A stretch of 32,000 nucleotides of DNA from an uncultured Desulfobacterales bacterium (GTDB lineage: Bacteria > Desulfobacterota > DSM-4660 > Desulfatiglandales > HGW-15), in NCBI GenBank assembly GCA_964475045.1, contig CAYYVD010000005.1, positions 1 through 32,000 on the forward strand, given 5' to 3'. Shown here piece after piece: positions 5,987 to 29,300 of this stretch. Position 1 is the stretch's first letter; every line of letters starts with the position of its first letter. Made by a program: the position numbers and the translations under genes. Below the pieces are notes generated by a model that ran no database searches, was not told the origin of the DNA, and was given only the letters and a program-made list of their open reading frames with translations.

Positions 5987-5992
5987 CGCACC

Positions 5993-12953: not shown

Positions 12954-13228
12954 GGTGCACCTCCCTGTCTGAAAACGATTTCGGATTGGGCCGCCCTGTC
13001 CGGGCGACGGGCCGTGGCGTCAGTGAGCCTCGAGAAGCGCTCACAAGAACACAGGAAGCTTTGGAACCCCCTCTCGGAGAAGGACGGGGGGCTGGTCGCG
13101 GTGCCGCCGGTCTCGGGACGGCGGCAGGGGGCACGGCCCGCGCGCGTGAAGATCCCCTTTTTGAAAGTGCCGGCAGGGACGCGGCAGAGGTGGTTCCCGA
13201 GGCACAAGGTGACCAATACACGAAATTC

Positions 13229-13271
13229 TGTCAAATTCATTTTGGTTATGGTATTCATAAGCTCAGCTTAT
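13229..13271 (-). promoter_or_regulatory. LysR-type operator plus -35-like hexamer, copy A (between the ppsA-like-1 operon and lysR-1)
   Basis: ATAAGctcagCTTAT (13257-13271) is a T-N11-A dyad. TGTCAA (13229-13234) reads TTGACA on the minus strand, 22 nt from the dyad. Copies B and C share this architecture. Confidence 0.65.
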
Positions 13272-13318
13272 TTATAGAAAACCGATGATAACCCCTGCTT
13301 TTGCTTTTGGGAGGCCCG

Positions 13319-14314
13319 ATGATCAACCTGAATCAGCTCCGTGTGTTCTACCACGCCGCCAAGCACCAGAACTTCACCCGGGCCTCCGAGGAGCTCCACA
13401 TCACCCAGCCCGGCGTGACGTCCCAGGCCAGGCTGTTCGAAGGCACGTGCAACCTGGTGCTGTTCAAGAAGAAGGGGCGGCGGGTCTTTCTCACGGACGA
13501 AGGGAAGGTCCTGTACGAATACGCCCGAAAGATCTTCGAGATCGAAAAGGAGCTGGAGGATGCAGTGGAGGAGCTCCGCGCCCTCAAACGGGGCATGTTG
13601 CGTCTCGGGACCACCAAGGCCTATGCCCACTACTTCATGCCCGCCCTGATCACGGGTTACCACCAGGAGTATCCCAACATCCGCATCATCCTGGACGAGG
13701 GCAGCTCCCGGGACATGATTCGCAGCCTCCTCGAGTTCAAAAACGAGATCGCCGTCATCGCCAAGGCCGAGGACCACCCGGACGTGGCCTTCACCCCGTT
13801 CAGCCAGGAGGAGCTGGTTCTGATCGTCCCGCCCGACCACCCCTGGACCCGGCGCAGGTCCGTGAGGATCGAAGAGTTGGCCCCCGAGCCCATCATCATG
13901 AAGGACACGGGGTCCGGAACCCGCAGGGTGATCAACGACCTGTTCGCCCGCAACGGCTACGAGCCCAATGTGCTCATGGAGACGAGCAACACCGAGTTCA
14001 TCAAGGACCTCGTGCATCGGGGGGAGGCCGTCTCGTTTCTCGTGCACGAGTCCGTGGTTCTCGAGCTTCGGGCGGGCCGAATCGGCTCGGTCCGCCTGGA
14101 GGGCATCCGTCTGACCCTCGACGTGAGCATCGCCCACCTGAAGGACCAGCACCTCTCTCCCGCGGCCAAGGCCTTTCTCGACATCCTGCACGGCCTGTCG
14201 GTCTCCAGCATGCCCTACCAGGGCCTCGGCGCCATGATGACCGCCATGCTGGCCCGGCGTAAGCGGAACGCCGGAAGAAAAGGGAAGGGTGGCAAACCGA
14301 TGCCCGATCCTTGA
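13319..14314 (+). CDS. LysR-family transcriptional regulator 1
   Basis: INLNQLRVFYHAAKHQNFTRASEELHITQPGVTSQ is the winged-HTH, followed by a typical LysR substrate-binding domain. GGGAGG sits 4 nt before ATG 13319 (the track's TTG at 13301 is less likely). The C-terminus carries a basic extension of about 35 aa. Confidence 0.9.
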   Translation: MINLNQLRVFYHAAKHQNFTRASEELHITQPGVTSQARLFEGTCNLVLFKKKGRRVFLTDEGKVLYEYARKIFEIEKELEDAVEELRALKRGMLRLGTTKAYAHYFMPALITGYHQEYPNIRIILDEGSSRDMIRSLLEFKNEIAVIAKAEDHPDVAFTPFSQEELVLIVPPDHPWTRRRSVRIEELAPEPIIMKDTGSGTRRVINDLFARNGYEPNVLMETSNTEFIKDLVHRGEAVSFLVHESVVLELRAGRIGSVRLEGIRLTLDVSIAHLKDQHLSPAAKAFLDILHGLSVSSMPYQGLGAMMTAMLARRKRNAGRKGKGGKPMPDP

Positions 14315-14343
14315 GGCAGGGGCGGGAAAAGAAAGGACGGGGA

Positions 14344-15210
14344 ATGAGCGACGGTGCATTCTACGATGTGGTCGTGGCCGGGGCAGGGCCTGGGGGGGGC
14401 ATGGCTGCAAAGGCGTGTGCCGAGGCCGGCCTGAAAACGGTGCTCCTCGAGATGCGGGGCCTTCCCCGGGACAAGGTGTGCACCGGCATGATCATGGCCC
14501 CCTGGTGTGGTGCTCTCCTGACCTCCGAGTTCGGCCCGGTTCCGTTCCGGCGGTTCTACGACGGGGCCCTGGACATGGATCGCAAGGTCATTCACTGGCT
14601 CTTCCCCCGGTCCCGGCCGAGGCCGCGGTTCGATCTGGTGCACAAGGGGGAGGGGTTCCTGCTGGAAGGGAGCGGCGTACGCGATCTCGATGAGGAGATC
14701 CCGGCCATCCTCGCCGAGTACGGCTTTCGCGGGGACCGGCGGCCTGCTTGGAGGGACGGGTGTCTTGTGGCCCGGCTTCACGGCCCGCTCATCGACGGCG
14801 TGTTTCGCCCTGCAGCCGGGCGGGTGCTCCTGGTGGGCGATGCTGCAGGACTGATCCTACCGGTGACCTTCGAGGGCATCGGGACCGCCCTCGAAAGCGG
14901 GAGACTGGCGGCCGAGACCATTCAAAAAGCCGTCTGCGGGGGCGGGGAGGCGGCGGAAGGCTACCTGGCCGAGCTGGCTCCGCTCCTGGCCATGATCAGA
15001 CGGTTGTGCCGCCTGGAGGCAAGGTTGGAGCAGACGGCCGAGACGAAGACCGGAGGCCTGGCCGAGGCCCTGGCGTCGGCCTATGGCGAGGCCATGGAGG
15101 ACCCGCGCCCGGCGTCGGGACCCGGGAGGGGCGGCCTTCACGAACGTTGGGACGCACCCGGTGCCAGGAGGACCGGATCGAGCCGGGCCGCGCCGAAGCG
15201 CTCGCAGTAA
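14344..15210 (+). CDS. Atypically short geranylgeranyl-reductase-like FAD-dependent oxidoreductase (possibly an internally deleted remnant)
   Basis: It has YDVVVAGAGPGGGMAAKACAEAGLKTVLLE (GxGxxG), RDKVCTGMI and RVLLVGDAAGLILPVTFEGIGTALESG. Only about 160 aa separate the N-terminus from the GDAAG motif, where I recall roughly 280 aa in typical members. The junk-like tail overlaps the convergent DUF89 gene by 73 bp. Confidence 0.5.
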   Translation: MSDGAFYDVVVAGAGPGGGMAAKACAEAGLKTVLLEMRGLPRDKVCTGMIMAPWCGALLTSEFGPVPFRRFYDGALDMDRKVIHWLFPRSRPRPRFDLVHKGEGFLLEGSGVRDLDEEIPAILAEYGFRGDRRPAWRDGCLVARLHGPLIDGVFRPAAGRVLLVGDAAGLILPVTFEGIGTALESGRLAAETIQKAVCGGGEAAEGYLAELAPLLAMIRRLCRLEARLEQTAETKTGGLAEALASAYGEAMEDPRPASGPGRGGLHERWDAPGARRTGSSRAAPKRSQ

Positions 15211-16022
15211 GGGCGACACTTGGACAACAGCAGAAAGGCGGTCTTGTCCAGGATGGAGCGCGGCTCCTCGCCGAAAGAGTCGAAGTTGCCCCCTCCTTTG
15301 GAGATGATCAGGTCGCACGCCTCGATCCGGCGCCGGACCTCGGGTGAGCACCGCGCCAGTCGCGTTCCCGGGAAGGGCCCGGAAATTCCGTTCTCCATCA
15401 CCGGCAGGTCCTCTTCCAGCCCCGCGGAACCGATCTCGCCCAGGGTGACGTCGTTCATGGCCGGGCGGCTGCGCACCACCAGCACCACCTCTTTGCCCTC
15501 CTGTCGGAGCCGCTCCATCAGAAGGCCGTCCAGGACGATCTCCCCGGCGTTGTCGGCGAGGTAGACGATGGACCGGCTGCGGTCCAGGCGGCGGCGGAAG
15601 GCTCGAATCGCCTCAGGACGAAGGAGACGGGTCTCCAGCTCGGCGTCCAGCGTCTCGGGGCGGTCCGCCAGCATCAGGTCCACCGCATTGCCCAGGACCG
15701 CAAGACGGAGGGCGAGCTCCAGAGGGTCGCCGGCCTGGGAAACCTTCCCCTGGAGTCGGGGCTTCACATCGAGCATGGCCCGGTTCTGCCTCTGCTTGAG
15801 GTCCCGAAAGGGGTCCTGATCTCCCAGGGTGCCCGAAAGAATGTCCAGGACGGCTTCGATCACGTCCGGGCTGGTGACATCCCACGCGTGGCCGCAGAGC
15901 GCCGGGATCCGGGCGATCCGCGTGCAGACCTTGCGCATGCTTTCCTCGGGCAGCCCGATCTCGTGCATGCCCGAGACGGCCATCTGAAACACGCATGGAA
16001 TACAGTCCGGCTGAATGCGCAT
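15138..16022 (-). CDS. DUF89 (ARMT1-like) metal-dependent phosphatase family protein
   Basis: 294 aa. YLADNAGEIVLD and ISKGGGNFDSF match the DUF89 metal/phosphate-binding motifs as I recall them. The start lies 3 nt after the upstream stop. Confidence 0.8.
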   Translation of the reverse strand: MRIQPDCIPCVFQMAVSGMHEIGLPEESMRKVCTRIARIPALCGHAWDVTSPDVIEAVLDILSGTLGDQDPFRDLKQRQNRAMLDVKPRLQGKVSQAGDPLELALRLAVLGNAVDLMLADRPETLDAELETRLLRPEAIRAFRRRLDRSRSIVYLADNAGEIVLDGLLMERLRQEGKEVVLVVRSRPAMNDVTLGEIGSAGLEEDLPVMENGISGPFPGTRLARCSPEVRRRIEACDLIISKGGGNFDSFGEEPRSILDKTAFLLLSKCRPYCERFGAARLDPVLLAPGASQRS

Positions 16023-16025
16023 GGG

Positions 16026-16685
16026 CTAAAAGCTCTTCATCATCTCACGCATGATGTAAGGCACCTCGATGCGGCCGGTGGGAGCGAGGATGCGGCTGCT
16101 GTACTCCGTGCCGTAGGCCTTCTTGAGGGTTCGGACCAGGCGGCGGAACTCGGAGGTGTCGATGGCCGCTGCGATGTCATGGATGTTCCGGGCGGTGCAC
16201 TCCGCCAGAATGCGCGGCCCCGATCCGACGGCCAGTCGCCACCCTCCGGTGATGGGCACCTTCAGATTCCGCATGGCCGGCACACACTCCTCCTTGACGA
16301 AGCGGTCGTGCTCCTCCTCTTTGCCCGGGACGATGTTGTAGTACTGGTTGAACTTCCACGCTCCGGCGCGAATTTTGTAAGGCTCCTGGTGGATCTTTCC
16401 CGTGGGGACCCAGACCTTGCTCGAGTAGTCGGAGACGAGACGGATCAGGGTTTGGAACACGATGCGGTACTCCCGCTTGGCCAGGGCCTCGATCAGGCTT
16501 TCGTTTCGGTCCACGGTGGCCACGGCCACGACCCTGGGGCCCTGCCCCACAGCCACGTAATAGCCGCCCAGGAGGCGGATGCCCAGCTGCTCCAGGGTCG
16601 GATTGAACTCATTGGTGACGAATGTCGAGTACTCGTCGAAGTGGTTGGTTTTCACGTCCCAGTACTGGGTGAAGAGGATGGTCAT
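16026..16685 (-). CDS. Internally duplicated (2 x ~105 aa) alpha+beta-barrel-like protein (NIPSNAP/Dabb-like), function unknown
   Basis: The two halves align at about 30% identity: FTQYWDV...GGYYVAVGQGPRV...EYR...YSSKVWVPTGKI against FNQYYNI...GGWRLAVGSGPRI...EFR...YSSRILAPTGRI. AGGAG sits 7 nt upstream of the ATG. Confidence 0.7.
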   Translation of the reverse strand: MTILFTQYWDVKTNHFDEYSTFVTNEFNPTLEQLGIRLLGGYYVAVGQGPRVVAVATVDRNESLIEALAKREYRIVFQTLIRLVSDYSSKVWVPTGKIHQEPYKIRAGAWKFNQYYNIVPGKEEEHDRFVKEECVPAMRNLKVPITGGWRLAVGSGPRILAECTARNIHDIAAAIDTSEFRRLVRTLKKAYGTEYSSRILAPTGRIEVPYIMREMMKSF

Positions 16686-16730
16686 GGCAGGCTCCTTCCC
16701 GGTGCTTTGGCCTCGCTCGGTGTTCGTTGT

Positions 16731-17759
16731 TCACATCTTGAAGACGCGGGTCATGAGCTCGGCGAGGTACTCTGAGTCTTTTTCCTTTTTCGGCGTGAAC
16801 TTGGCCGGCCGCGTCTGGACCCAGAAGAGGTTCTCCGGAAACGCCAGGTCCCGGTCGAAGACCCACTCCATGTCCTGGGGCATGTCGAAGTGGGCTTCCA
16901 CGTTCAGGGCGATGCGGACAATCTCCCGGACCTCCTCCTCCTCGAGACAGGGCTTCTCCCGAAGCTCGGGGGGAACGGCGGTGACGGCCGTCCCCCGGGC
17001 CTTGTAAGCCACCATCTTGGGCTTCGGGTTGATGGTGCTGTGGATCTGCCCGGTCTTCTTGTCCACGATGAAGGAGTCCGGAGTGATCTCTCCGCTCACC
17101 ACGCTTTCTCCGAGGCCCCAGTTCCCCTCGATGACCACGCCGGTCAGGTCGCCCGTGATGGGGATCACGGTGAGCGCGACGCCCGCGCACTTGGCGTTGA
17201 CCATCTTGAGGACCGCCACCCCGATGGGAGCCTTGTCCATGGGCATTCCCTTTTCCAGGCGGAAGGCGATGGCCCGGGTGGTGAAGGCGCTTCCCCACAC
17301 CTGGATCACCTTTTCCGCCACCTCGTCCTCTCCCTGGACGTTCAGGTAGGTCTCCATCTGACCGGGCATGCTCACGGCTCCGCTCGAGCGGGTCGCCACG
17401 GCCACATCCGGGCCTCCCGACGCTTCACAGACCCGGAGGTAGTGCTCGGAAAGCTCCCTCTTCATGGCCGGGGGCATGGTCCTCGCCTGGATGAGGTTCC
17501 GAATATAGCGGCTGGCTTCCACCTGGGCCTGCACATTGTGGTGAAGACGCTGCTCGTTCTGGCTCACGTAGTCCTGGATCTCCCGGCCCGTTCCGGTCTC
17601 CTCCATGAAGCGTTCGTAGCCCTCCACGGACACGGCAAAACCGGGCGGGACCCGCATTCCGAGGTGGGTCATTTCTCCGAGGTTTGCGCTCTTCTTGCCC
17701 ACCAGGTCGTTGTGCTGGCTCCGGAGCTCTTCGAGACGGTAAATCCATGGTTTCGTCAT
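16731..17759 (-). CDS. PEP/pyruvate-binding (ATP-grasp) domain protein, PpsB-like (pair 2)
   Basis: 342 aa with LVGKKSANLGEMTHLGMRVPPGFAVSV. It is collinear with the pair-1 beta-like protein. AGGAG sits 9 nt upstream. Confidence 0.85.
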   Translation of the reverse strand: MTKPWIYRLEELRSQHNDLVGKKSANLGEMTHLGMRVPPGFAVSVEGYERFMEETGTGREIQDYVSQNEQRLHHNVQAQVEASRYIRNLIQARTMPPAMKRELSEHYLRVCEASGGPDVAVATRSSGAVSMPGQMETYLNVQGEDEVAEKVIQVWGSAFTTRAIAFRLEKGMPMDKAPIGVAVLKMVNAKCAGVALTVIPITGDLTGVVIEGNWGLGESVVSGEITPDSFIVDKKTGQIHSTINPKPKMVAYKARGTAVTAVPPELREKPCLEEEEVREIVRIALNVEAHFDMPQDMEWVFDRDLAFPENLFWVQTRPAKFTPKKEKDSEYLAELMTRVFKM

Positions 17760-17786
17760 GTGATCTCACTCCTTTTGGGTCGGGCG

Positions 17787-17827
17787 GGTGAGGGCGCCCG
17801 GACCCGGTCGTCCGGGACACCCTCACC
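17787..17827. repeat. Interrupted 15-bp stem-loop in the ppsA2-ppsB2 intergenic spacer
   Basis: GGTGAGGG (17787-17794) pairs with CCCTCACC (17820-17827). An inner stem pairs CCCGGAC (17797-17803) with GTCCGGG (17810-17816). Confidence 0.5.
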
Positions 17828-17868
17828 GCGTACCTTTGGAATGGCCCGTCGGGGCGGGCCCGGCCGGG

Positions 17869-19548
17869 CTAGCCGAGGATGTAGACGACGCCCAGGTTTG
17901 CGTCCACCTTGACCCGCTGGCCGCTTTTGATCTTGGCGGTGCCTTCGAAGACGTTCATGACCACCGGGATGCCGTACTCCCGTCCCACGATGGCCGCGTG
18001 TGAGAGGCTGGCGCCCCGGTCCACCACCACGCCTTTGATCATGGAGAAGATGGGCGTCCAGCTCGGCGATGTGCTGGCGGCCACGAGAATGTCTCCTTCC
18101 TGGACGCGGTGCAGCTCGTCCTCCGACATGATGACGCGGGCGGTGCCCTCGGCCACGCCCGGCGAACCGCAGGTCCCATAGAGGTCCGCCTTGAGCTCCG
18201 GGCGAACGTCCGGCATGGAGCCCACCACCACCTTGAGGGCGATGGGGTCGTTGGACTGCACCAGCACGCCCATGGCCTGATCCAGGTCGAATCCCTCCTT
18301 CAGCATAACCGGCGGGTTGGGGTTCTTCTTCCACTCCTCCCACTCGGCCTTCCTGCGCTCCACGATGGAGCGGAGGTTGAACTGATCCGGGGCGATGCCG
18401 GCACGGCGCACCTCGTCCGGAATCAGGAAGAACATGTCCTCCGGGGCGTCGATGGCGCCCTCGGCCGTGAAGCGGCGGCCCAGCCCCAGAGCGCTTCTCC
18501 GCATCATGGCGTGGGTGTAGAGGTCCAGGTAATGGTCATGCTCCTCGCTGAACACGCCGCTCTTCTGGGCCAGGCGCATGAGCTGCTCGAACCAGGCCCG
18601 CTGCTCCTGGGGAACCTTGGCGAGAACCTCTTTCTCCGCGGCCAGCCGCTCCGCCTCGGTGTTGCTGCGCTCCTCGTCCAGGTTGAAGCCGCCCCCTTTG
18701 GACAGGAACTGTTTGACGGCCCCCAGGGCCGGTGTCGGATCCTCCACCCAGGTGGGCAGATTGATCTCGCTCATGCGCTGCATACGCCAGCCGTCCTCGT
18801 TCATGAAGTCCATGAAGTCCTTCATGAAGGCCTGCCCCTTTTCCGTCTCCTCCAGCTTTTCGCGGATGTCCGGCGCATCGTTCTCGAGGAACACCTCCGC
18901 CAGGCCCTCCTCCTCGGCGCGCTTGGAGAACTGCCAGAGCTTTCGATCCACCTGAAAGACCTTGTTGTCGAACCCGGAGACGAGCTTGTGAAAGAGGGGG
19001 GAGGTGTCGTCGATCTGGGCGATCTGGCGGCACATGTTTTCGAACAGGATGTAGGCCGTGTAGGTCCCGTACATCATGTACATGTGGATCTCCCACATGC
19101 GGCGGCAGGTGTTGATGGTCTCCTCGAAGTTCTCCAGGAGCTCGACGTTGCTCGCCGTGTCCAGGTTCAGCGCCTTGAGGGCCTCGTACCGGTTGAGGAT
19201 CTCGTTTACGAAATCGTTCCACAACCCGTCATAGTCCTCGATGAAGGGCAGGATCGCCTTCCGGAACGCCTCCTCACGGCGTTGTTTCTCTTCCTCGCTC
19301 TTGACCAGGAGCAGGGTCAGGTAGCCCCCGCCGTTCATGAACCGCCAGTCCCACCCTTTGACCGTGGGCAGGCTCAGCTTTTCCGCGCCGTACTGCATGC
19401 CGTGCCTGCAGAAGTTGATCCAGAACCAACCAAACATGGGCGTCCAGGGCGGCACGGAATGGGTCCCGTCCAGGAACCAGGCGGGCGACTGCTCGAAATC
19501 CTTTTCCGGATCGAATTCCAATCCCGGAACCACGTCGTAGACTTTCAT
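17869..19548 (-). CDS. PEP-utilising mobile-domain protein, divergent PpsA-like (pair 2)
   Basis: 559 aa from ATG 19548, which has AAGGAGG 5 nt upstream; the track's 19740 start adds a junk-like extension. The C-terminal motif is RGASLSHAAIVGREYGIPVV (His codon 17998-18000). The N-terminus MKVYDVVPGLEFDPEKDF differs from pair 1. Confidence 0.85.
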   Translation of the reverse strand: MKVYDVVPGLEFDPEKDFEQSPAWFLDGTHSVPPWTPMFGWFWINFCRHGMQYGAEKLSLPTVKGWDWRFMNGGGYLTLLLVKSEEEKQRREEAFRKAILPFIEDYDGLWNDFVNEILNRYEALKALNLDTASNVELLENFEETINTCRRMWEIHMYMMYGTYTAYILFENMCRQIAQIDDTSPLFHKLVSGFDNKVFQVDRKLWQFSKRAEEEGLAEVFLENDAPDIREKLEETEKGQAFMKDFMDFMNEDGWRMQRMSEINLPTWVEDPTPALGAVKQFLSKGGGFNLDEERSNTEAERLAAEKEVLAKVPQEQRAWFEQLMRLAQKSGVFSEEHDHYLDLYTHAMMRRSALGLGRRFTAEGAIDAPEDMFFLIPDEVRRAGIAPDQFNLRSIVERRKAEWEEWKKNPNPPVMLKEGFDLDQAMGVLVQSNDPIALKVVVGSMPDVRPELKADLYGTCGSPGVAEGTARVIMSEDELHRVQEGDILVAASTSPSWTPIFSMIKGVVVDRGASLSHAAIVGREYGIPVVMNVFEGTAKIKSGQRVKVDANLGVVYILG

Positions 19549-19798
19549 GCTTGCCTCCTTTTGTGTGGGGATGGATGGGCCGTCTCGAAAGTGGTTCGGA
19601 CGGGGTTTCTTCGACCGGCCGGGCATCCGGGACCGGACGTCTGGACTGAAAAGCGATGGGCGCAGCATGGAGAGCGGGGATCGAGCCGGACGAAAAACCG
19701 CGTCAAGAACCGGCGGCCTCGGACCGCTGGTGAAGCACAAGGCTGCAGAGAGATCGGGATCGAGAGAGCAGAAGGCCCATTGTGGTTTTCCGGCGTTC

Positions 19799-19812
19799 GA
19801 TCACCTCCTTTC
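19799..19812 (-). other. Orphan extended Shine-Dalgarno element (plus strand equals a 16S rRNA 3'-tail-like 14-mer)
   Basis: The minus strand reads GAAAGGAGGTGATC and the plus strand GATCACCTCCTTTC. The nearest ATG is 23 nt downstream, so no start codon sits at functional spacing. Confidence 0.4.
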
Positions 19813-19829
19813 ACAGAAGGGGGATTTCA

Positions 19830-20184
19830 TCACTCGTCGTCCACGAGCGTCAGGGCCCCCGGGGCGCACCACTTGACGCATTCGGGATCGGGAGGGTCCC
19901 CTCAGAAGTCGCACTTGAGGGGAATGCCTGTGTCCGGTTCCTTGAACACCGATTTGAGCGGGCAGGAGGCCCGGCAGACCACGCATCCGTCAAGATCGGC
20001 GCCGAGAAGGTGCACAATCCCCCTGGAGTTGCACGCGGCCTCGGTGTAGGGACCGGCAATCACCGGCAGACAGTAAGTCTCTGCCACGTACACGCGGATT
20101 CACGGCGTCCGTGTGCTTGAGGGAGCAGGCCACCTGGCACATCCTGCACCCGGTGCAGCGGCTGGGGTCGATGTGAATCCTCAT
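19830..20184 (-). pseudogene. Decayed poly-ferredoxin ([4Fe-4S] dicluster) gene
   Basis: The start is ATGA-coupled to the AOR stop (20181-20184). MRIHIDPSRCTGCRMCQVACS is intact. The frame shifts near 20095-20105 (..AVNPR then IRVYVAETYC). The internal cluster motifs are degenerate (CLPVIAGPYTEAAC, CVVCRASCP). An in-frame TGA at 19902-19904 is followed in frame by GDPPDPECVKWCAPGALTLVDDE*. Confidence 0.7.
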
Positions 20185-21689
20185 TCGCATCCCCCTTCCT
20201 CGGCCAGCCCCAGCTCCTGCAGCTTCTCCGGGGTGGGGGTGCCCTGGTCGTCCCACCCGCGAAGGGCGTAGTACTCAGCCAGCATGCGCTCCAGATGGAC
20301 CACCTGGTCCTTGACCCGGGGCTCCTCGGTCATTCGCCGGGGGAGGCGGTCATCTGTGCGGCTGAATCCCTCGCGGCGGTTGAAGATCCTTTCCAGGTTC
20401 CAGATTCTCTCTCCGATGCGCGCCAGTTCATCGGCCGTGTATTCCATGCCGGTGATGACGTTCAGCCAGGCCTGAAGCTTCTTCGCCCAGAGGGGGCCGT
20501 GGTAGATGATCCAGCACAGAATGGCGGAGTCCACCAGGGCCACGAAGTCCCGGTCCTTCACCGTGAAGGGGACGTGTTGGGCCGGGTCCTTGCGGCCCTC
20601 GTAAAAGGGGAGCGTGGCCTTGGTGTGGGAGGCCCCCACGTTGTTCGTGGCGTCCTGAAGGCCGATCCCCTCGAAGCCCTGGGGGTGCCAGGCGGGCATG
20701 CCCGACCCTTTGACGCCCATGAACAGCTCGGGGTGCCCGCATTGCTCTGCGAGGATCGCCCCTCCTTCGGCCACCCTGTCCCCGAAACCTTCCCGTAGGG
20801 CCGTCTGCTTCATCAATCGGATCATGGCGTCCAGGTCGCCGAAGCGAACCGTGTATCCGATCTCGGCTTGGCCGATCACATCGCGTTCGAACAGCTCCAT
20901 CACGCACGAGACGGTGGCGCCCGTGCTGATGGTGTCCATGCCGAGCTCGTTGCACAGGTAGTTGGTCCGGCAGATGTCCGCCAGGTCCCCGATCCCGCAG
21001 TTGGACCCCAGGAGGGCCATGCTCTCGTGCTCCGGGCCCTTGGCCGTGCCCGGGTAGGCGGGATCCGATATTCGGCTGCGCTTGCTGCACGCGAAGGGAC
21101 ACCCGAAGCAGGCCTCGTCCCGGACGCGGATTCGATCGCGAATGACGGCAGGATCGTCGAATGCCGTGAAGGGCTCGAAGAAACCGGCCTGGAAGTTCAT
21201 GGCGGCCTGAGTCCACGTGGCGTTGGCCCGGCAGGGCAGCACCCAGGTCCCGTACATCAGGCGGTTCCGCTTCCCCCACAGGTGCGAGGCCGGGCGGATC
21301 TCCACGCGATCGTCCCGGATGTAGAGATACACCGGCTCCTCGGCGCTTCCTTCCACCACCAGCACGTCATAGCCCGAGTACTTGAGGTGGGCCCCGAAAT
21401 ATCCTCCACAGCAAGGGTTTGCGATCCCTCCGCTCAATGGGCTCTTGGAGACCACGATGAAGCGCCCCCCGGCGGGCACGCCCGAACCCGTGAGCGGCCC
21501 GGTGGCGAAGAAGAGCTTGTTCTCAGGGGCCAGAGCGTCGGTCCCCGGTGCGATCTCGTCGAAGAGCATGCGCAGCCCGACGCCCCGGCCGCCGATGTAC
21601 TTCCGGGCGAGTTGTCGGGACAGGTTTTCCACGGCGATGTGCCCGCGGGTGAGGTCCACTCTCAGGATGTTGCCCTTCCATCCGTGCAT
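20181..21689 (-). pseudogene. Aldehyde:ferredoxin oxidoreductase (tungsten AOR) family gene with an in-frame internal deletion of about 100 aa
   Basis: 502 aa, where I recall about 600 for the family. The N-terminus MHGWKGNILRVDL, the EACFGCPFAC cluster motif and C-terminal YYALRGWD are present. HLWGK joins almost directly to ..YGTWVL...NFQAGFF (junction near 21255-21270). The IGPAGE / AGRGG.GAVMGSK segment as I recall it is therefore missing. Confidence 0.65.
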
Positions 21690-22136: not shown

Positions 22137-22153
22137 TGGACTTCACGTCCTCT

Positions 22154-22918
22154 CTAGTGCATGAGCCTTCCCCCGTCCACGAGGAGGGTCTGTCCGGTCA
22201 TGAAATCGCTTTCGCTGGAGGACAGGTAGAGAAACGGCCCCTGCGATGTCTTCGGGCGTGCCGACCCGGCCCAGAGGGGCTTTCGAGGTGTCGTACTTGG
22301 AGACGTCCGCGAGTCGCCGACTCGCCTCGGTGTCGATGAACCCGGGGCGACGGCATTGATGGCGATGCCGTGGGGCCCCAGCTCCACGGCCAGGGCCCGG
22401 GTGAGACCCATGACACCGCCCTTGGAGGTCACGTAGTGAGCGAATCCGGTGGAACCGGTGAAAAAAACCTCGGAGGCGATGTTGACGATCCTCCCGTAGC
22501 CCTGCGCTTTCATGTGGGGAAACACGGCGCGTACCGCGAGGAAGACCCCCTTGACGTTCACGCGCATCACCAGGTCCCACTCGTCGAGGTCGATCTCGGT
22601 AAAGGGCCTTCTTTGAATGCCGTCATAGACGGCCGCGTTGTTGACGAGGATGTCCACCCGGCCGAAGGCCTCGGCGGCGGCTTGGGCCATGGCCCGGGTC
22701 TCGTCCTCGTTGGACACGTCCGCCTCGAAGGGAACGGCATGTCCACCCATGGCCTGAATCCGCTCGACGGTTTCTCGAAGGTCGTTTCGATCCTGTTGGG
22801 TCAGCCCGATGTTCATGACCAGGACACTCGCTCCCTCGCGCGCGAGCGCCAGGGCAAAGGTTCGTCCCAGACCCCGGGCCCCGCCTGTCACGATGACCGA
22901 TCGGCTCTCGAGTCGCAT
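22154..22918 (-). CDS. Short-chain dehydrogenase/reductase (SDR) carrying two compensating frameshifts
   Basis: VIVTGGARGLG, NNAAV and YVTSKGG (the Y-x3-K motif) are present. GGAGGG lies 7 nt before ATG 22918. Between about 22340 and 22232 the open frame reads SSTPRRVGDSRTSPSTTPRKPLWAGSARPKTSQGPF. The canonical FIDTEASRRLADVSKYDTSKAPLGRVGTPEDIAGAV is in the adjacent frame (track ORF 22143..22580). Confidence 0.8.
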   Translation of the reverse strand: MRLESRSVIVTGGARGLGRTFALALAREGASVLVMNIGLTQQDRNDLRETVERIQAMGGHAVPFEADVSNEDETRAMAQAAAEAFGRVDILVNNAAVYDGIQRRPFTEIDLDEWDLVMRVNVKGVFLAVRAVFPHMKAQGYGRIVNIASEVFFTGSTGFAHYVTSKGGVMGLTRALAVELGPHGIAINAVAPGSSTPRRVGDSRTSPSTTPRKPLWAGSARPKTSQGPFLYLSSSESDFMTGQTLLVDGGRLMH

Positions 22919-23198
22919 GATGGATCCCTCCGTCATGGGACGGGGAGGCTGTTCCCCGCCGGATTGGGAGGGTTCGTTTCTTTGACGAAACTGAGAGCGT
23001 TGCCGTCCGATTCAGGGTTTCGGGTTCTGTGTGTCCGGCTTCGATATGACCACTCCCGCAGCACGCTGCGGGCTGTTTCCCTGATGCACGCTCCCTCTGT
23101 GGGGAGGCTTCGGAAGAGGATAGGCATGAGGCGGGCCATGGAGACGGCCCCGTTTCGAAGAAGCTCCTTCAGTTTCTTCGATTCTGATGAGTTCCGTA

Positions 23199-23246
23199 TT
23201 GACTTGTCAAAACAATTGAATTTATATTGATATAAGTTTTTCTTAT
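23199..23246. promoter_or_regulatory. LysR operator plus divergent promoter module, copy B (SDR operon / lysR-2)
   Basis: The dyad is ATAAGtttttCTTAT (23232-23246). TGTCAA (23205-23210) reads TTGACA on the minus strand, 21 nt away. On the plus strand, TTGACT (23199-23204), N18 and TATATT (23223-23228) form a sigma70-like promoter for lysR-2, whose predicted start falls in the dyad. Confidence 0.65.
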
Positions 23247-23274
23247 GCTTTGTGCTTGCGGTCCCCTCATGCAG

Positions 23275-24174
23275 ATGAACCTCAATCAGTTGCGCGTCTT
23301 CTATCTGGTCGCCCGGGAGAAAAGCATCACCCGCGCCGCGGAGAGGCTTTTTGTGACCCAGCCCGCCGTGACCATGCAGGTTCGGGCCATGGAGGAGCAG
23401 CTGTCCCTGAGGCTGTTCAAACGCCACGGCCGGGTCCTCAGGCTCACGGAAGGGGGCCGCGTCCTCTTGGGGTACGCCCGAAAAATCTTCTCGATCGTCG
23501 ACGAGATGGAGTCCGTGATCCCCCGTTACGCGGACCTCTCGGAAGGGGCCCTCACCATCGGCACCACAAAAAGCTTTGCACGCCACCTCATGCCCGGCCT
23601 GCTCTCCCGCTTTCAGACCGCCTATCCCGGAATCCGGGTCTCTTTGAAAGAGGCCAGCTCCATGGAGATCGCCGAGGGGCTCGGGACGTTCAGGTACGAT
23701 CTCGGCCTGGTCGGCAGGCTCGAGTACGGCAGAAAGCTGACCGTGGTCGACTACACCAAGGAAGAGTTCTGCCTGGTGACCCCCCCGGACCACCGCTTCA
23801 CCCGCATGCAGGAGGTCTCCCTGGCCGACCTCAAGGGCGAACGGATCATCATTCGGGAGGAGGGGTCCGGCTCCCGGGACGCCATTCGCGTGCTCCTCGA
23901 ATCCCACGGCATCACGCCGTCCGTGCTGATCGAGGCGGGCAGCGTGGAGTTCATCAAGGAGTACGTCATCCAGGGAAAAGGGGTCTCCTTCCTATATATA
24001 CCCGAGATCGATCTGGAAGCCAGGATGGGATTGATCATTCCCCACAAGGTGCGGGAAGGTCCCATCCTGGTCCAGACCGTGGTCATCTACCCGAGGGACG
24101 TCGCGCTTTCCCCGGCGGCCAAGGCCTTCCTGGACCTGGTCACCCCTCAGAACTCGGCCTTGGACAGGCCGTAG
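23275..24174 (+). CDS. LysR-family transcriptional regulator 2 (paralog of regulator 1)
   Basis: MNLNQLRVFYLVAREKSITRAAERLFVTQPAVTMQV is the HTH. The C-terminal SPAAKAFLDL is shared with regulator 1. ATG 23269 or 23275 is the likely start. ATG 23245 lies inside the operator dyad. Confidence 0.9.
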   Translation: MNLNQLRVFYLVAREKSITRAAERLFVTQPAVTMQVRAMEEQLSLRLFKRHGRVLRLTEGGRVLLGYARKIFSIVDEMESVIPRYADLSEGALTIGTTKSFARHLMPGLLSRFQTAYPGIRVSLKEASSMEIAEGLGTFRYDLGLVGRLEYGRKLTVVDYTKEEFCLVTPPDHRFTRMQEVSLADLKGERIIIREEGSGSRDAIRVLLESHGITPSVLIEAGSVEFIKEYVIQGKGVSFLYIPEIDLEARMGLIIPHKVREGPILVQTVVIYPRDVALSPAAKAFLDLVTPQNSALDRP

Positions 24175-25790
24175 TCCTCCGCGATGAGCTGGTAGCAGTT
24201 GTAGCTGGAGCCGCGCCCGATGGCCGGTCCGCCCGCCACGCCCGAGGAGCACATGTAGAGACCCTTGACGAACGTCCGGAACCCGCCCGGCAGGCCCCTG
24301 AAGCGGCCGCTCTGGCTGCCGCCGCAGTTGCCCTCCGACCATCCTCCCTCCCGCATGTCCAGGTGCGTTTCCTGGATGTCGATGGGCGTGGTGATGCGCT
24401 CCCCGATGAAGTTGTCCTTTTTCATGTTGGGGGCGAACTTCTGCCAGTAGGCGATCATGTTTTCGTAGAACTCGTCGTGGAGGCTCCGCCACTCCTTCCG
24501 GGAAAAGATGCGGGCGGGAGCGGTGAAGTCCTCCACGTGGATGCTGTGCTTCCCTTCGGGCACCCGGGTCTTGTCCCAGATGCTGTCCGGCGCGGTCAGG
24601 AGCAGGAACTTGGAGGGCATGCCGAAGAGGAAGATCTCGTGCATGTACTTGTCCTCCATGAATCCCAAGTCCTTGGGGGCGATGTAGGTCCGCGGCGTAG
24701 CCGCCACGTCGGGATTGTCCTTGGCCGCCTTGTACTCCGGAAGCTCGTGAACCGCGACCGGTCCCCAGAAGAGCTGGGCGCGGTCGAAGAAGTAGGTGTC
24801 CACCTTCCGTTTCATCCGGGTGGTCAGATGATTCTCCCCGATCATGCGCAGGAACAGCTGGGGCGTGGCGTTGTCCGAGACCACCATCTGCTTGGCCTCG
24901 ATCTCCGTCCCGTCCAGGAGCTTGATGCCCTTGGCTTTGCCGTCCTCGATGAGAACCTTGTCCACCTCGGCATTGATGTGATACTCGGCGCCCAGCTTCT
25001 TTCCGGCCGAGACCAGCGCGTCCGTGATGGCCTGGGTCCCGCCCTTGGCGATGGCCGCGGTCTCCCAGCCCAGCACGAGGTGCAGGGTCGCGAAGGTGTA
25101 CATCAGGCCCGGCACGTCGTCCGGGTAGATGCCGCAGGAGGTGAGAAACCCTCTCATGGTGAGGATTCGGAGCTCGTCGCTCTCGAAGAAGTAGTGGGCG
25201 ACCTCCTTGGCGGTCATGAACTGCATGGAGGGATCGATCCCGCTCTTGGGATTGCTCATGAGCTCTTCCAGGGGATCGGGAACCCCGTATGGCGTGGGAA
25301 CGGAGAAGCGGAACCGGTGAAAGGCCGGCCGAATGATCTCCTTGTACTTTTCCGTCCAATCGAGGTAGGCCTCGGCATCGGCCTTGGAAAACCGCGCGAT
25401 CTGGTCGTAGGTCTTCTGCACATTCGTTGCGCTGTATTCCGTCTTTCCCGTTTGGGGGTCCACCACCGGGAAGCCGGCGTAGGCCACGTAGGATGTGCCG
25501 TCATCAAAGATCACGGCCTCGTTGGTGTCGGGAAAGACATACTCCAGGCCCTCCTCCCGCAGGTTGAACTCCTTGTAGGCGGGATGGCCGTAAAAGCGCG
25601 TGAAGTGCGCGCAGAAGTTTCCCCGAAACCCGGGGGCAGGATTGTCGTCAAAGGAAACCGCGCCACCGCCCAGATGATCCAGGCGTTCGAAGACGCCCAC
25701 CTTCAGCCCGGCCTTGGCGAGATATGGGGCAATGATCGTCCCGTGATGGCCTCCCCCGATAACCACCGCATCGTAAGATTTGTCCGCCAT
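24147..25790 (-). CDS. Phytoene-desaturase (CrtI)-family FAD-dependent oxidoreductase
   Basis: 547 aa with YDAVVIGGGHHGTIIAPYLAKAGLKVGVFERLDHLGGG (a Rossmann fold with the GG motif). AGGAGG sits 8 nt upstream. The 3' end overlaps convergent lysR-2 by 28 bp. Confidence 0.85.
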   Translation of the reverse strand: MADKSYDAVVIGGGHHGTIIAPYLAKAGLKVGVFERLDHLGGGAVSFDDNPAPGFRGNFCAHFTRFYGHPAYKEFNLREEGLEYVFPDTNEAVIFDDGTSYVAYAGFPVVDPQTGKTEYSATNVQKTYDQIARFSKADAEAYLDWTEKYKEIIRPAFHRFRFSVPTPYGVPDPLEELMSNPKSGIDPSMQFMTAKEVAHYFFESDELRILTMRGFLTSCGIYPDDVPGLMYTFATLHLVLGWETAAIAKGGTQAITDALVSAGKKLGAEYHINAEVDKVLIEDGKAKGIKLLDGTEIEAKQMVVSDNATPQLFLRMIGENHLTTRMKRKVDTYFFDRAQLFWGPVAVHELPEYKAAKDNPDVAATPRTYIAPKDLGFMEDKYMHEIFLFGMPSKFLLLTAPDSIWDKTRVPEGKHSIHVEDFTAPARIFSRKEWRSLHDEFYENMIAYWQKFAPNMKKDNFIGERITTPIDIQETHLDMREGGWSEGNCGGSQSGRFRGLPGGFRTFVKGLYMCSSGVAGGPAIGRGSSYNCYQLIAEDYGLSKAEF

Positions 25791-25848
25791 CGTGCTGACC
25801 TCCTGTGTTTGGTGAAGATGAAAGAAACTCGGCTTCCAAAGCCGGCGA

Positions 25849-26640
25849 TCATTGGAGCGACCGGAAAACGGCTGCCAGCTTTTCCGCCTTCTCCTCGGGT
25901 GTGCCTTCGATCCACTCGCACGCTCGTGTCATGTCCGGCGGGGAAGAAAGCTCGACGATCTCCATTTTTCGCAGAGACTCCGGGGCCGAGACGAAATCCT
26001 CGCTGTCCCAGGAGGGAATGGAGGCCGTACCGCGCATCATTTTCATCATGCGGGTCCTGGAGATGTAGCGCAACTCGCCCACCTCGTTGCTGACGGTGAC
26101 GAGGGCGGGCATCTCGGCCCGGACCTGTTCATACCCCACGGGTACGCTCTTTTTCACCAGCACACGCCCGTCCTCGACCTTGATCTCACGGGCGAGCGGA
26201 ATGCAGGCAAGGTCCAGCATCTCCGCCAGGATCAGGCCCACCTGACCTGAGTCCCAGTCCCCGGCCTGCCTGCCGGTGAGAATCAGGTCGAACGTGCCGA
26301 CCTTCCGGACGGCGTCCGCCAGGACGGCGGCCACGGAATGACTGTCGAGCTTGTCAAAGGCGTTGTCCTGCATGAGGATGAGCTCGTCGGCGCCGGCGGC
26401 CAGGCTCTTTCTCAGGACGGTGTCCGAGACCCGCTTGCCCAGGCTCAAGACGGTGACCTTGCCGCCGACCTCCTCCTGAATTTGAAGCGCGGCCTCCAGG
26501 GCGTTCTCATCGAAAGGGTTGATGACCATGGGCGCGTCGACGATCACCTCCCTGTTGTCTGCATCCACGCTCACGTCGGACAGGGGCGCTTCAGGGTCGG
26601 GAATCTGTTTGGCACAGACGATGATGTTGAGCTCTTTCAT
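25849..26640 (-). CDS. etfB: Electron-transfer flavoprotein beta subunit
   Basis: 263 aa with NIIVCAKQIPDPEAP and VINPFDENALEAAL. An ATGA overlap joins it to the etfA stop. Confidence 0.9.
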   Translation of the reverse strand: MKELNIIVCAKQIPDPEAPLSDVSVDADNREVIVDAPMVINPFDENALEAALQIQEEVGGKVTVLSLGKRVSDTVLRKSLAAGADELILMQDNAFDKLDSHSVAAVLADAVRKVGTFDLILTGRQAGDWDSGQVGLILAEMLDLACIPLAREIKVEDGRVLVKKSVPVGYEQVRAEMPALVTVSNEVGELRYISRTRMMKMMRGTASIPSWDSEDFVSAPESLRKMEIVELSSPPDMTRACEWIEGTPEEKAEKLAAVFRSLQ

Positions 26641-27626
26641 GACATCTCCTCCAGCTTTTCCACGAGGGCCGGGATGACCTTTTCGAAATCCTCAACGACG
26701 CCGTAATCGGAGACCTTGAACATGTTGCAGCCCGAATCCGTGTTGATGGTGATGATTTTTTTGGACTGAATCATGCCGACCAGGTGCTGGATGGCACCCG
26801 AGATCCCAACGGCCACATAAATGTCCGGGCTGATCATGCTCCCGGTGAGGCCCACCTGGTGATCGGACGAGATCCATCCCTTGTCCACGGCCACCCTGCT
26901 GCAACCGATCATCACCTTACCGAAGGATTTGCCCAGCGCGTCTGCAAGCTCCTGAAGGGTTTCGAATCCCTCCTCGTCGTCCAGCCCGGCGCCGCCGGCG
27001 ACCACCACGTTTGCGCTGTCCAGAGAGACGATGTCCTCGCGAACCACCTCGAGGGACTCCACCCGGTTCATGGACGCATCGAGCTCCGGTGCCAGATTCA
27101 CGATCTCGGGGCTTCCGTCCCTGCGCGCCGCAGGTTCGAAGACATTCCCCCTCACCGTCACCAGCTGGGGTGAACCCGGGCACTTGAAGACGGAGATGGC
27201 GTTTCCGCCGGAGACCGGCTTGGTGCGCAGCAAAAGCCCGTCACCGGAATCGACGGCGAGATCAATGCAGTCGGTGGTCAGGCGGGTGTTCAGGCGGTAG
27301 GCCAGTCTCGGGGCCAGCTCCATGCCCTTGGGGCCGTGGCCCATCAGAAGGATCTTCGGCTGGATGGTCTTGCAGGCCTGCTCCAGTGCGGCGAGCCACA
27401 GGTCCGGGGCGAATGCTTTCAGGAGGGGGTGCTCGAGCTTGTACACACGGCCCGTCCCGTACGCGGCAACCTGCTCGGCCGCCGATGAAACCGCATCCCC
27501 CAGGAGGGCGATGGAAAGCCCCGCCTCCAGCTCGTCGGACAGCTTTCTGCCGACGGACAGCAGCTCGAGGGTCCTCGTGTCCGGCGATCCCTCATTCACT
27601 TCTCCCAGCACAAGCACATCCCTCAT
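26637..27626 (-). CDS. etfA: Electron-transfer flavoprotein alpha subunit
   Basis: 329 aa with the C-terminal FAD-binding region VVAGGAGL...SSDHQVGLTGSMISPDIYVAVGISGAIQHLVGM. Confidence 0.9.
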   Translation of the reverse strand: MRDVLVLGEVNEGSPDTRTLELLSVGRKLSDELEAGLSIALLGDAVSSAAEQVAAYGTGRVYKLEHPLLKAFAPDLWLAALEQACKTIQPKILLMGHGPKGMELAPRLAYRLNTRLTTDCIDLAVDSGDGLLLRTKPVSGGNAISVFKCPGSPQLVTVRGNVFEPAARRDGSPEIVNLAPELDASMNRVESLEVVREDIVSLDSANVVVAGGAGLDDEEGFETLQELADALGKSFGKVMIGCSRVAVDKGWISSDHQVGLTGSMISPDIYVAVGISGAIQHLVGMIQSKKIITINTDSGCNMFKVSDYGVVEDFEKVIPALVEKLEEMS

Positions 27627-29167
27627 CCTCTCCTCCTTCCAATGACTCCAAAACCAGCTCGTTGAGGTCCATGACCCGAAGGGTTTCGTTCAGGCCGGCC
27701 GCTTTGCGGGCGTCTTCCATCATGATGCGGCACAGGGGGCACGCTGTGACGAGGATCTGTGCGCCGGTGGCCTCGGCCTCCCGAATGCGGACCCCGCTCG
27801 CCCGTCCTTCGAGCGATGTCCCCGCAGCAGGGCTCTTTCTTCCCGAGGATGCCGAAGGAGACTTCGGCCGACTGGAGGATGGCCGCGAACGAGCGCCCGA
27901 TCCCCTGTGCCGTGTCGTCGAACGAGGTGGTGCATCCCACGAAGTAGCACAGATCGGCCTCCGCGCCCCGCTTGGTGAGATCCACCAGCTCCAACCCCTC
28001 CGCCCAGGCGCCGCGCTGTTTTTTGGAGGACTCCCAGGGGTTGTCGTATTTGAACACCCGTTCCAGGGTCTGGTTCATGAGCTTGGGAACACCGGTTCCC
28101 TCCTCCACGGCGAGGATCCGCTGCTTGGCCACGGCTTCGAATGGCGCCCCGTACACCGGGCAGACCTCCAGACAGGCCCGGCACGTGGTGCAGTACCAGA
28201 GCGTCTCGTCCTCCGGAGGCGCTCCGCCTCGGCCCAGGACCTGAAGATTCCCCCACGGGGAGTGCTCCTGCCATACGGCCCGGCGCATGGCCTGGACGAA
28301 CTCCCGGGGTGCGAAAGGCTCGCCGGCTCCGGCCGAAGGGCAGGCGGCCACGCAGCGACCACACCGCATGCACGCGTCGAAGAAAACCACGTCCCCCAGG
28401 TCAAAGGCGCCCGCACCTTCCTCTACGCCCAGGACGGCCGGTTGGACGATGCCCTGAACGTAGATTCCGACGGGGGCACTCAGGACGTGAAAGAGCTTGG
28501 TGAAGGGGATCGCCGCGATGAAGCCCAGGCTCAGGAGGGCGTGTCCCCACCAGAACGCGGAATAGACGCCCTCAGCCGCGGCAAGGGGGAAGAGCGAGGC
28601 CGTCCACGCGCCCGCAAAAGACCAGCCGGCCCAAGGAGGCTTCTGGATTGTCAGCCGAAGCCCCTCCACGAAAAACCCGGAGAGCCCGATCAGGAGTAGC
28701 CAGGAGGGCACCAGGGCATCCTCCGGACGCCTTTCGAGCCGGGGGACACGCTGGAGGTATCGGCGGATCAAGGCCCACAGCACGCCGGACAGGAGCATGA
28801 GCCCTCCCGCCTCCAGCACGGCGGAGTAGACCAGGTAGGTCGTGCCCATCAGGTAGGAGAACCCATAGTCGTGGACGAAGAGGAGGGTGGTGCCGATGAA
28901 CAGGATCAGGAAACCCCAGAAGATCAGGAGGTGCATGAGGCCGGCGGCAATCTCGCCCTGAAGCAGGCGCCGTCCGAGAAGGGCGTCCAGAAGGGCCGTC
29001 TTGAGGGCGTTCCCGAAAAAGGCGACCTTCAGCAACCCGGCGCCGTGTTTCCACACTCGAAGGTGGGCGGCGATTCCAGCCAAGAACAGCCCGGCGGCCA
29101 GGGCCGTCAGCAGGTAGAAGATCCAGACACCTTCGATCTGCCAGAACATCTCGCGATGGGGTGTCAT
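27592..29167 (-). pseudogene. Membrane-bound Fe-S (2x[4Fe-4S] + CCG-domain) oxidoreductase of the ETF-associated type, interrupted by a 1-nt frameshift
   Basis: The N-terminus has about 6 predicted TM helices, followed by CMRCGRCVAACP, CTTCRACLEVCP and CYFVGC...EPCCG. After the CCG motif the annotated frame turns into an R/G/P-rich tail ending at 27623. Dropping one G from the G4 run (27820-27823) restores TSLEGRASGVRIREAEATGAQILVTACPLCRIMMEDARKAAGLNETLRVMDLNELV..., which ends at 27592. Confidence 0.75.
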
Positions 29168-29258
29168 GAAGGGTCTCCGGCACTGGTTCGGTCCGGGAGA
29201 GCCGTGGAAAAGCCCGGGCCACAGGATACAGGAGATATTCGTTGGGAGTTTGTCGAGT

Positions 29259-29300
29259 TGTCAAAGCAATTGATTTTATGTTTGCATAAGCTTTTCTTAT
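29259..29300 (-). promoter_or_regulatory. LysR operator plus -35 module, copy C (upstream of the Fe-S oxidoreductase/etf/CrtI-like operon)
   Basis: The dyad is ATAAGcttttCTTAT (29286-29300). TGTCAA (29259-29264) reads TTGACA on the minus strand, 21 nt away. On the minus strand, TTGACA, N18 and GAATAT follow. The module is about 77% identical to copy B over about 50 bp, and the dyad overlaps the stop codon of the Mo-enzyme gene. Confidence 0.65.

Follow-up and report, generated by a model that had tools for sequence, protein, structure and literature searches.

Three copies of a putative LysR operator-promoter module in an anaerobic aromatic-degradation supercluster of an uncultured Desulfobacterales bacterium

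The stretch of DNA analysed here, positions 1 to 32,000 of contig CAYYVD010000005.1 (assembly GCA_964475045.1) of an uncultured Desulfobacterales bacterium, is referred to below as the window. It carries three near-identical control regions of 42-43 bp (copies A, B, and C), in each of which the dyad ATAAGNNNNNCTTAT (ATAAG-N5-CTTAT) is combined with a TGTCAA hexamer on its left that reads TTGACA on the minus strand. Our analysis suggests, with a probability of roughly 0.8, that the three copies are operators of two LysR-type transcriptional regulators (LTTRs), LysR-A and LysR-B, fused to sigma-70 promoters. Through these modules the two regulators most likely switch on operons for anaerobic phenol degradation.

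Annotation of the window proteins with Pfam revealed a supercluster of genes for anaerobic aromatic degradation, nearly all of which are on the minus strand, the two LysR regulators excepted. The LysR-A gene (13319..14314, plus strand; Pfam HTH_1 and LysR_substrate) is divergent from ppsA1. The LysR-B gene (23269..24174, plus strand; Pfam), whose product is 40% identical to LysR-A, is divergent from an SDR gene. The proposed target operon A (152..12953, minus strand) contains ppsA1, ppsB1, genes for a UbiD carboxylase, a receiver protein, a CoA ligase, a UPF0261 protein and UbiX, and a 4-hydroxybenzoyl-CoA-reductase-like FAD/Fer2/MoCo trio, and the same gene order was found in two other loci, L001 and L004. 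Operon B (15138..22936, minus strand), a probable target, contains genes for SDR, Fer4 and AOR proteins, a small Fe-S open reading frame (ORF), ppsA2, ppsB2, and genes for a 219-aa protein and an ARMT1-like protein. The proposed target operon C (24147..29167, minus strand) encodes a membrane Fe-S oxidoreductase, ETF-alpha, ETF-beta and a CrtI-like flavoprotein, in the same order as in locus L206. Copies A and B lie in the divergent gaps adjoining the two LysR genes. Copy C lies in a 130-nt gap upstream of operon C, with no LysR gene adjoining. This is the gene context that had been described in the original prediction, an earlier reading of the letters of this DNA.

The dyad ATAAG-N5-CTTAT has exactly three matches in the window, ATAAGCTCAGCTTAT at 13257..13271 (copy A), ATAAGTTTTTCTTAT at 23232..23246 (copy B), and ATAAGCTTTTCTTAT at 29286..29300 (copy C), at the very coordinates given before. 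None of 100 dinucleotide-preserving shuffles of the window contained any match, which puts the number expected by chance at 0, and a window scan with the relaxed core ATAA-N7-TTAT found the same three places only. All three dyads follow the T-N11-A rule of LysR sites, as had been claimed, with T at position 2 and A at position 14. The TGTCAA hexamer, predicted to lie 21-22 nt to the left of each dyad, was found at 22 nt in copy A and at 21 nt in copies B and C; the pattern TGTCAA-N15-30-ATAAG has three matches in the window vs 0.01 expected. A finer register, TGTCAA-N11-TTAT-N6/7-dyad, is common to the three copies. The G+C content of the modules is 17-30% vs 64% for the window, in agreement with the AT-rich islands noticed earlier. 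We propose the copy A dyad, which is invariant in L001 and L004, as the primary LysR-A site, and the copy B dyad as a LysR-B site. The copy C dyad is an orphan site whose right arm overlaps the TAA stop codon of a molybdopterin oxidoreductase gene.

LysR-A homologues were collected by a protein search followed by an alignment-based fetch of 80 metagenome loci at 56-78% identity, selection being by protein only, and the 67 loci with at least 250 nt of upstream sequence were counted. The pattern TGTCNA-N11-TTAT-N7-ATAA-N7-TTAT was present upstream of the regulator in 63 of these 67 orthologous loci (94%), vs 0 matches in 452 kb of flanking sequence. Exact TGTCAA occurs in 61 of the 63 modules. 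The consensus of the A-type reads cTGTCAAaTtcaTTtTttTTATGaTAT.cATAA.tTtt.cTTATg...cATAAa.ttTatTTag. A second, imperfect site, centred 31 bp rightward of the dyad, makes up its last block. The claim of a perfect dyad was borne out for the three exact copies in the window. It did not extend to the orthologues, in which the G and C of the dyad are the least conserved positions and the strict ATAAG...CTTAT form was found in 17/67 loci only; TGTCAA and TTATG.TAT are better conserved, and TTATG.TAT is nearly invariant.

For LysR-B, five independent loci were obtained by exact protein look-up (L206, L209, L210, L212, and L215). The B-type module TTGACW-TGTCAAAnCAnTTnnTTTTATA....CATAAG..TT.yTTAT was found directly upstream of LysR-B in 5/5 of them. 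The gene order of the window is kept in L206. The LysR-B-like gene of L209 and L210 is transcribed divergently from ppsA2, ppsB2 and the gene for the 219-aa protein, which supports the placing of the second pps system in the LysR-B regulon. By the measure of phylogenetic footprinting with the orthologues of both LysR-A and LysR-B, the module appears to be tied to these regulators.

An exact scan of one genome per species for TGTCAA-N11-TTAT-N6/7-ATAAG-N5-CTTAT gave at least 119 loci. Most of the matches listed were from metagenome-assembled genomes with delta-proteobacterial or Thermodesulfobacteriota labels, namely Desulfobacterales, Desulfatiglandales, Desulfomonile, Syntrophus, and Syntrophobacteraceae. 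Those in AT-rich Bacteroidales and similar genomes are plausibly due to chance. Searches by tblastn with the window proteins showed that 90 of the 119 unique matches listed adjoin a LysR-A/B homologue or a homologue of the window operons, so that the module is not frequent irrespective of its context; the other 29 had no recognisable LysR or homologous operon nearby. Large records held one to three matches per genome among those listed, which indicates that the module is not a common repeat.

The spacing between hexamer and dyad differs with the regulator. Among the matches listed, the 43-nt form of the module (22-nt spacing) had ppsA1-ppsB1-UbiD on its left, and LysR genes of at least 45% identity on its right were A-type in 25 cases and B-type in 0. 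The 42-nt form (21-nt spacing) had on its left the Fe-S oxidoreductase/ETF operon at no fewer than 20 loci, CrtI-like genes at no fewer than 14, and SDR genes at no fewer than four; here the LysR genes on the right, at the same identity threshold and among the matches listed, were B-type in 32 cases and A-type in 0. The 20 or more loci with the Fe-S/ETF operon are in other genomes and usually have a divergent LysR-B orthologue on the right. Spacing thus co-varies with the regulator paralogue, as would be expected of cognate operators. The presence of the module, its geometry, its conservation and this co-variation are direct observations. The co-variation, together with the 21-nt spacing of copy C, suggests that copy C is an orphan LysR-B site that lost its adjoining regulator.

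Sites such as copy C, the module of locus L106 and the 29 matches listed without such neighbours could also mean that the dyad is recognised by another, possibly global, transcription factor, the adjacency of LysR genes being incidental. We consider this very improbable, since among the matches listed the spacing tracks the LysR paralogue strictly (32/0 and 25/0), the module is found in 94% of LysR-A and 5/5 of LysR-B orthologous upstream regions, and many of the context-free matches are in AT-rich Bacteroidales-like genomes and look like chance. It is barely credible that the three copies are relics of a segmental duplication, or a small mobile repeat, with no regulatory role. Copies B and C agree at 35 of the 42 module positions and LysR-A and LysR-B are paralogues, as a duplication would have it, but the module recurs across many sulfate-reducing and syntrophic bacteria and across orders of Desulfobacterota while its flanks diverge. 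Moreover, it is always at operon 5' ends, and in the window it has three copies only, with no terminal repeats or target duplications.

Departures from the common arrangement were observed in the genome scan. In the closest relative, L106, a module identical to copy C would instead drive genes for a 173-aa membrane protein and an MFS-like protein. A variant module with the direct repeat TGACAAAAAAAS-TGTCAA was found in L030, L031, L034, L045, L077, L083, L087, L089, L096, L102, L108, and L121, several of which are labelled Desulfobacula. Its near-consensus rightward promoter, TTGACA-N17-TATAAA, is displaced by 8 nt to the left relative to that of the B-type.

The TTGACA hexamers had been proposed as -35 boxes of the minus-strand operons, and our analysis of -10 offsets upholds this. 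Hexamers with A at position 2 and T at position 6 (A2 and T6) were scored on the operon strand, at positions that are not in any search pattern. Such a hexamer was found exactly 17 nt after TTGACA in 41 of the 54 unique A-type sequences, and in 13 or fewer at every other offset from 5 to 39. Typical hexamers at the 17-nt offset are AATTAT, CATAAA, and GAATAT. This fixed offset indicates that TTGACA is probably a real -35 box. The B-type signal is broader, with its maximum at 18 nt (19/46). At eight orthologous loci, TTGACA is no more than 70-103 nt away from the ppsA start codon, too close for a different promoter to fit in between. When leader B was aligned with that of L206, the -35 box and the spacer were the best-conserved stretch, and identity further downstream was lower and patchy.

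The -35 hexamer matches the consensus at 6/6 positions in all three copies of the window. In copy A, the -35 box of the leftward ppsA1 operon promoter is at 13229..13234 (minus strand), and a weak -10 candidate, CACCTT, lies 17 nt from it at 13206..13211 (minus strand). In copy B, the leftward -35 box of the SDR operon (23205..23210, minus strand) is part of a back-to-back TTGACT/TGTCAA at 23199..23210, and the candidate -10 box CAGAAT is 18 nt away at 23181..23186 (minus strand). In copy C, the -35 box of the Fe-S oxidoreductase/ETF/CrtI-like operon is at 29259..29264 (minus strand) and the candidate -10 box GAATAT, again 18 nt away, is at 29235..29240 (minus strand); GAATAT is also present in L106, and CAATAT in most Fe-S/ETF loci. 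Of the three copies, only the promoter of copy B passed a scan against the consensus (score 10/12), in keeping with the weak -10 boxes noted earlier. When the start is placed 7 nt past the -10 box, the predicted starts are at about 13199, 23174, and 29228. The dyad centres, 13264, 23239, and 29293, are each 65 bp from the start predicted in this way from the conserved -35 and -10 boxes. With these predicted starts, all three dyads would be at the position near -65 that had been expected for the recognition site.

TGTCAA may instead be a protein contact, either an LTTR activation site or, in the B-type, a 12-bp palindrome TTGACW/TGTCAA for a second factor, with the operon promoters inside the leaders and nearer to the genes. 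The conservation of the hexamer (61/63) indeed exceeds that of a typical -35 box, and the palindrome hardly varies in the B-type (43/46). Leaders A and B are also unusually long, and leader A has a block, CGGGAACCACCTCTGCC, with a loose likeness to a sigma-54 -24/-12 element. However, the A2/T6 hexamer is locked at 17 nt, the orthologues with 70-103 nt between TTGACA and ATG have no space for a separate promoter, and scans of the leaders gave no sigma-70-like sites. The leader A block was rejected as a sigma-54 promoter, as its -12 GC is changed to GT in L004, it is limited to one GC-rich clade, and Pfam annotation shows no gene for a sigma-54 activator in the window. We therefore regard a contact role in place of the -35 box as quite unlikely.

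The regulator genes also appear to have promoters in the modules. The hexamer immediately to the left of TGTCAA, which was not in the search pattern, is TTGAC[AT] in 43/46 unique B-type modules, so that TTGACW/TGTCAA forms a palindrome of back-to-back -35 boxes. In copy B, the rightward -35 box TTGACT (23199..23204, plus strand), the left half of this pair, would serve lysR-B together with the -10 box TATATT (23223..23228, plus strand). TTGACT-N18-TATATT scores 10/12, and its predicted start, inside the dyad's left arm, would give the usual geometry of autorepression. The lysR -10 box of the A-type may be provided by the conserved TTATGATAT (TATGAT; in the window, TATGGT). The corresponding TTATGGTATTC of copy A (13246..13256), as read from its sequence, is a candidate for the lysR-A -10 box TATGGT, for a third half-site (TTATG-N5-CATAA overlapping the dyad), or for both, and the same double role may be held by its TTAT. 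In copy C, the rightward -35 position (29253-29258) has decayed to TCGAGT, which fits the absence of a rightward gene. L106, with the identical module, keeps TTGACT. This suggests a recent loss of the rightward transcription unit at copy C in the window genome.

We propose the following mechanism. A LysR tetramer would bind the dyad ATAAG-N5-CTTAT (core ATAA-N7-TTAT), centred about 65 bp upstream of the start of the leftward promoter, in which the near-invariant TTGACA would be the -35 box, followed at 17-18 nt by a weak -10 box. The second contact of the tetramer would be made with flanking half-sites, namely TTATG on the promoter side and, in copy A, a second imperfect dyad 31 bp away. With an aromatic inducer bound, the regulator would activate the catabolic operon. 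It would also repress its own gene; autorepression is proposed from the overlap of the lysR promoter with the dyad. LysR-A would serve copy A, with its 22-nt spacing, and hence the operon leading from phenol to 4-hydroxybenzoyl-CoA (phenylphosphate synthase). LysR-B would serve copies B and C, with their 21-nt spacing, acting on the SDR/AOR/second pps-like operon and, in trans, on the Fe-S oxidoreductase/ETF/CrtI-like operon.

The flanking elements are found as follows. A conserved TTATG half-site is centred at about -49, and in the A-type TTATG-N5-CATAAG-N5-CTTAT forms three alternating half-sites about 10.5 bp apart. Secondary dyads lie distal of the dyad, by 31 bp in the A-type and by 21 bp in the Fe-S/ETF type, and nothing clearly overlaps the -35 box. 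The secondary imperfect site of copy A, ATAACCCCTGCTTTT at 13288..13302, is centred 31 bp to the right of the dyad, and the cATAAa.ttTatTTag block of the LysR-A orthologue consensus is at the same offset. In Fe-S/ETF-type loci such as L010, L018, L036, L038, and L041, a second dyad, ARAAG-N5-CTTAT, follows the first at exactly 21 bp on its right, ahead of the start codon of lysR. Copies B and C of the window lack it.

Several points weigh against the proposed mechanism. The extra sites (the 31-bp site in A and the 21-bp second dyad in many Fe-S/ETF loci) lie in part beyond the dyad as seen from the promoter, an arrangement of recognition and activation sites that departs from the textbook order, and there is no clear activation site overlapping the -35 box. 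The copy A -10 box, CACCTT, matches the consensus at A2, T5, and T6 only. Regulator binding, the direction of regulation, the inducers and the transcription starts are what we infer from sequence. In the genome scan, the conservation of TGTCAA, TTAT and the dyad is circular, as these were part of the search pattern, and the unbiased evidence is that of the flanking positions of the scanned modules and of the protein-selected sets only. Our module counts in the source organism cover the 32-kb window.

It had also been predicted that copies A and B leave untranslated leaders of about 270 nt. The distance from hexamer to start codon is in fact 275 nt in A and 268 nt in B, and from the predicted starts the leaders measure about 246 nt (A), 238 nt (B), and 61 nt (C). 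The predicted 5' leader of the ppsA1 operon (12954..13199, minus strand) is of a kind that is the rule in its orthologues. More than 160 nt separate TTGACA from ATG in 76 of the 84 unique ppsA loci, and long leaders are thus typical of ppsA operons.

Such lengths favour a further layer of control besides the LTTR promoter, in which the ppsA1 and SDR leaders would act as cis-regulatory RNAs (for instance a riboswitch, an attenuator or a 5' anti-Shine-Dalgarno clamp). The structure that RNAalifold gave for five GC-rich relatives also speaks for it: a conserved 5' block pairs with the Shine-Dalgarno region, and there are two hairpins; 88% of its cells were paired vs about 40% in slid controls, with 4 compensatory pairs, the same five sequences having served for derivation and test. 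However, Rfam gave no match in the window at gathering score and, at E up to 1, only a spurious snoRNA match (22 bits vs a cut-off of 50). Fold z-scores were weak, at -0.93 for leader A and -1.21 for leader B, and a hairpin scan across the leaders found no shared hairpin. The duplex of 5' block and Shine-Dalgarno region, compared with shuffles, had a mean z of -0.18 over 76 leaders and -0.85 in the window, which is no general effect, and leader B is poorly conserved with L206 beyond the promoter. The cis-regulatory RNA suspected in the leaders thus found no support, and we consider its presence unlikely and no more than a weak lead. A bolder reading, which we judge unlikely, is that the alternating half-sites (TTATG/CATAAG/CTTATG plus the distal dyad) and the ultra-conserved TTGACA constitute a non-canonical LTTR-RNA polymerase architecture, to which the 160-300-nt ppsA leaders would add RNA-level control of anaerobic phenol activation, for example by the 5' anti-Shine-Dalgarno clamp of the GC-rich clade.

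Other features of the leaders were also recorded. Small ORFs were considered in them and set aside, as only mechanical GC-rich ORFs without support were found. Many otherwise dissimilar leaders (L126-L205 and L007-L125) share a short motif, TYAACC with an A-rich stretch after it, some 20-35 nt ahead of the ppsA Shine-Dalgarno sequence. In L050 (LysR-A 79%, UbiD 95%), ppsA and ppsB are missing and the conserved leader is fused, about 270 nt downstream, to sequence leading into UbiD. L050 looks like a natural deletion variant of operon A.

As for the operons themselves, operon A is a complete-looking gene set for the conversion of phenol to benzoyl-CoA under anaerobic conditions. The receiver-only response-regulator gene embedded in it (7719-8240) is conserved in order in L001 and L004. 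The minus-strand region 15138-19740 carries a second, divergent pps-like pair, together with the 219-aa protein, which is of no known family, and the ARMT1-like phosphatase. The identity of ppsA2 to ppsA1-type sequences is 23-28% by tblastn, and a LysR-B-type module directly precedes this pair and the 219-aa gene in L209 and L210. The substrate of the second pps-like system may be another phenolic or an aniline-like compound. An apparent gap of 440 nt between AOR and ppsA2 (19741-20180, minus strand) encodes a Cys-rich ferredoxin-like start (MRIHIDPSRCTGCRMCQVAC...) and not one long ORF; possibly it is a gene for an Fe-S subunit that is short or frameshifted. The gap yielded neither a promoter nor a terminator, and a further copy of the module, sought upstream of ppsA2, was not found there. 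The ORF at 14311-15210 (plus strand) has an N-terminal FAD-binding motif only (residues 18-50). L209 and L210 have a full 367-aa FAD_binding_3 gene adjoining the 219-aa gene, of which the window ORF may be a truncated or mis-framed copy.

The proposed module resembles known LTTR systems in many respects. In the LTTR paradigm, the T-N11-A recognition site is near -65 and the activation site near -35 (PMC5603801). The classical LTTR aromatic operons (BenM/CatM, CatR, CbnR, NahR, and PnpR/PnpM) share with it a divergent lysR gene and a T-N11-A repeat, and by our predictions they would also share the position of the repeat near -65, a weak core promoter, an overlap with the regulator's own promoter, and the control of an aromatic degradation operon (PMC5603801). 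Unlike in them, the half-site here is ATAAG/CTTAT, TTGACA is near-invariant, the -35 box and the dyad have a TTATG half-site between them, secondary sites are found beyond the dyad, and the hosts are strict anaerobes (Desulfobacterota). The window LysRs are below every curated NCBIfam cut-off (best 197 bits vs 250), and their closest solved relative is CbbR (5y2v, E 8e-42), with BenM at about 1e-19. In the tetralin operons under the LTTR ThnR (PMC4834489), one LTTR site cluster is likewise placed between two close divergent promoters. Here, unlike in that system, the rightward promoter is that of the regulator's own gene in A and B, and the B-type has a back-to-back -35 palindrome.

The anaerobic phenol pathway itself is regulated differently in denitrifying Betaproteobacteria. 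In Thauera and Aromatoleum, the pps-ppc genes are under a sigma-54-dependent activator of the NtrC/XylR type. Substrate-specific control of pps, ppc/UbiD, and UbiX would be shared with our module, which differs from that system in its LTTR and sigma-70-like promoter, and in the absence of a sigma-54 activator from the window.

Among the Desulfobacterota, the pps-ppc-hcr cluster of Desulfatiglans anilini, whose gene content is the same as that of operon A, was found to be phenol-induced by reverse transcription PCR and proteomics (PMC6114531). That paper describes no regulator, operator or promoter, the words 'regulator', 'LysR', and 'promoter' having 0 occurrences each. A literature search for a pps-gene regulator or operator in Desulfobacterota found enzyme studies and no regulator or operator. 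Regulation of the anaerobic degradation of phenol and related aromatic compounds in sulfate-reducing and syntrophic Desulfobacterota is essentially undescribed.

The operator and its regulon would accordingly be new and specific to this LTTR subfamily, and the mechanism, being of the standard LTTR kind, would hold limited conceptual surprise. The regulatory solution appears to be different for the pathway, a sigma-70 LTTR system as against the sigma-54 activator of denitrifying Betaproteobacteria, and standard for the LTTR family. The module would link orphan operons (ETF/Fe-S oxidoreductase, CrtI-like, SDR/AOR, and the second pps-like system) to aromatic catabolism, and it would form a basis for picking promoter fragments for biosensors or heterologous expression. 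The 42-43 bp motif with its paralogue-specific spacing would also be a handle for predicting regulons in uncultured degraders.

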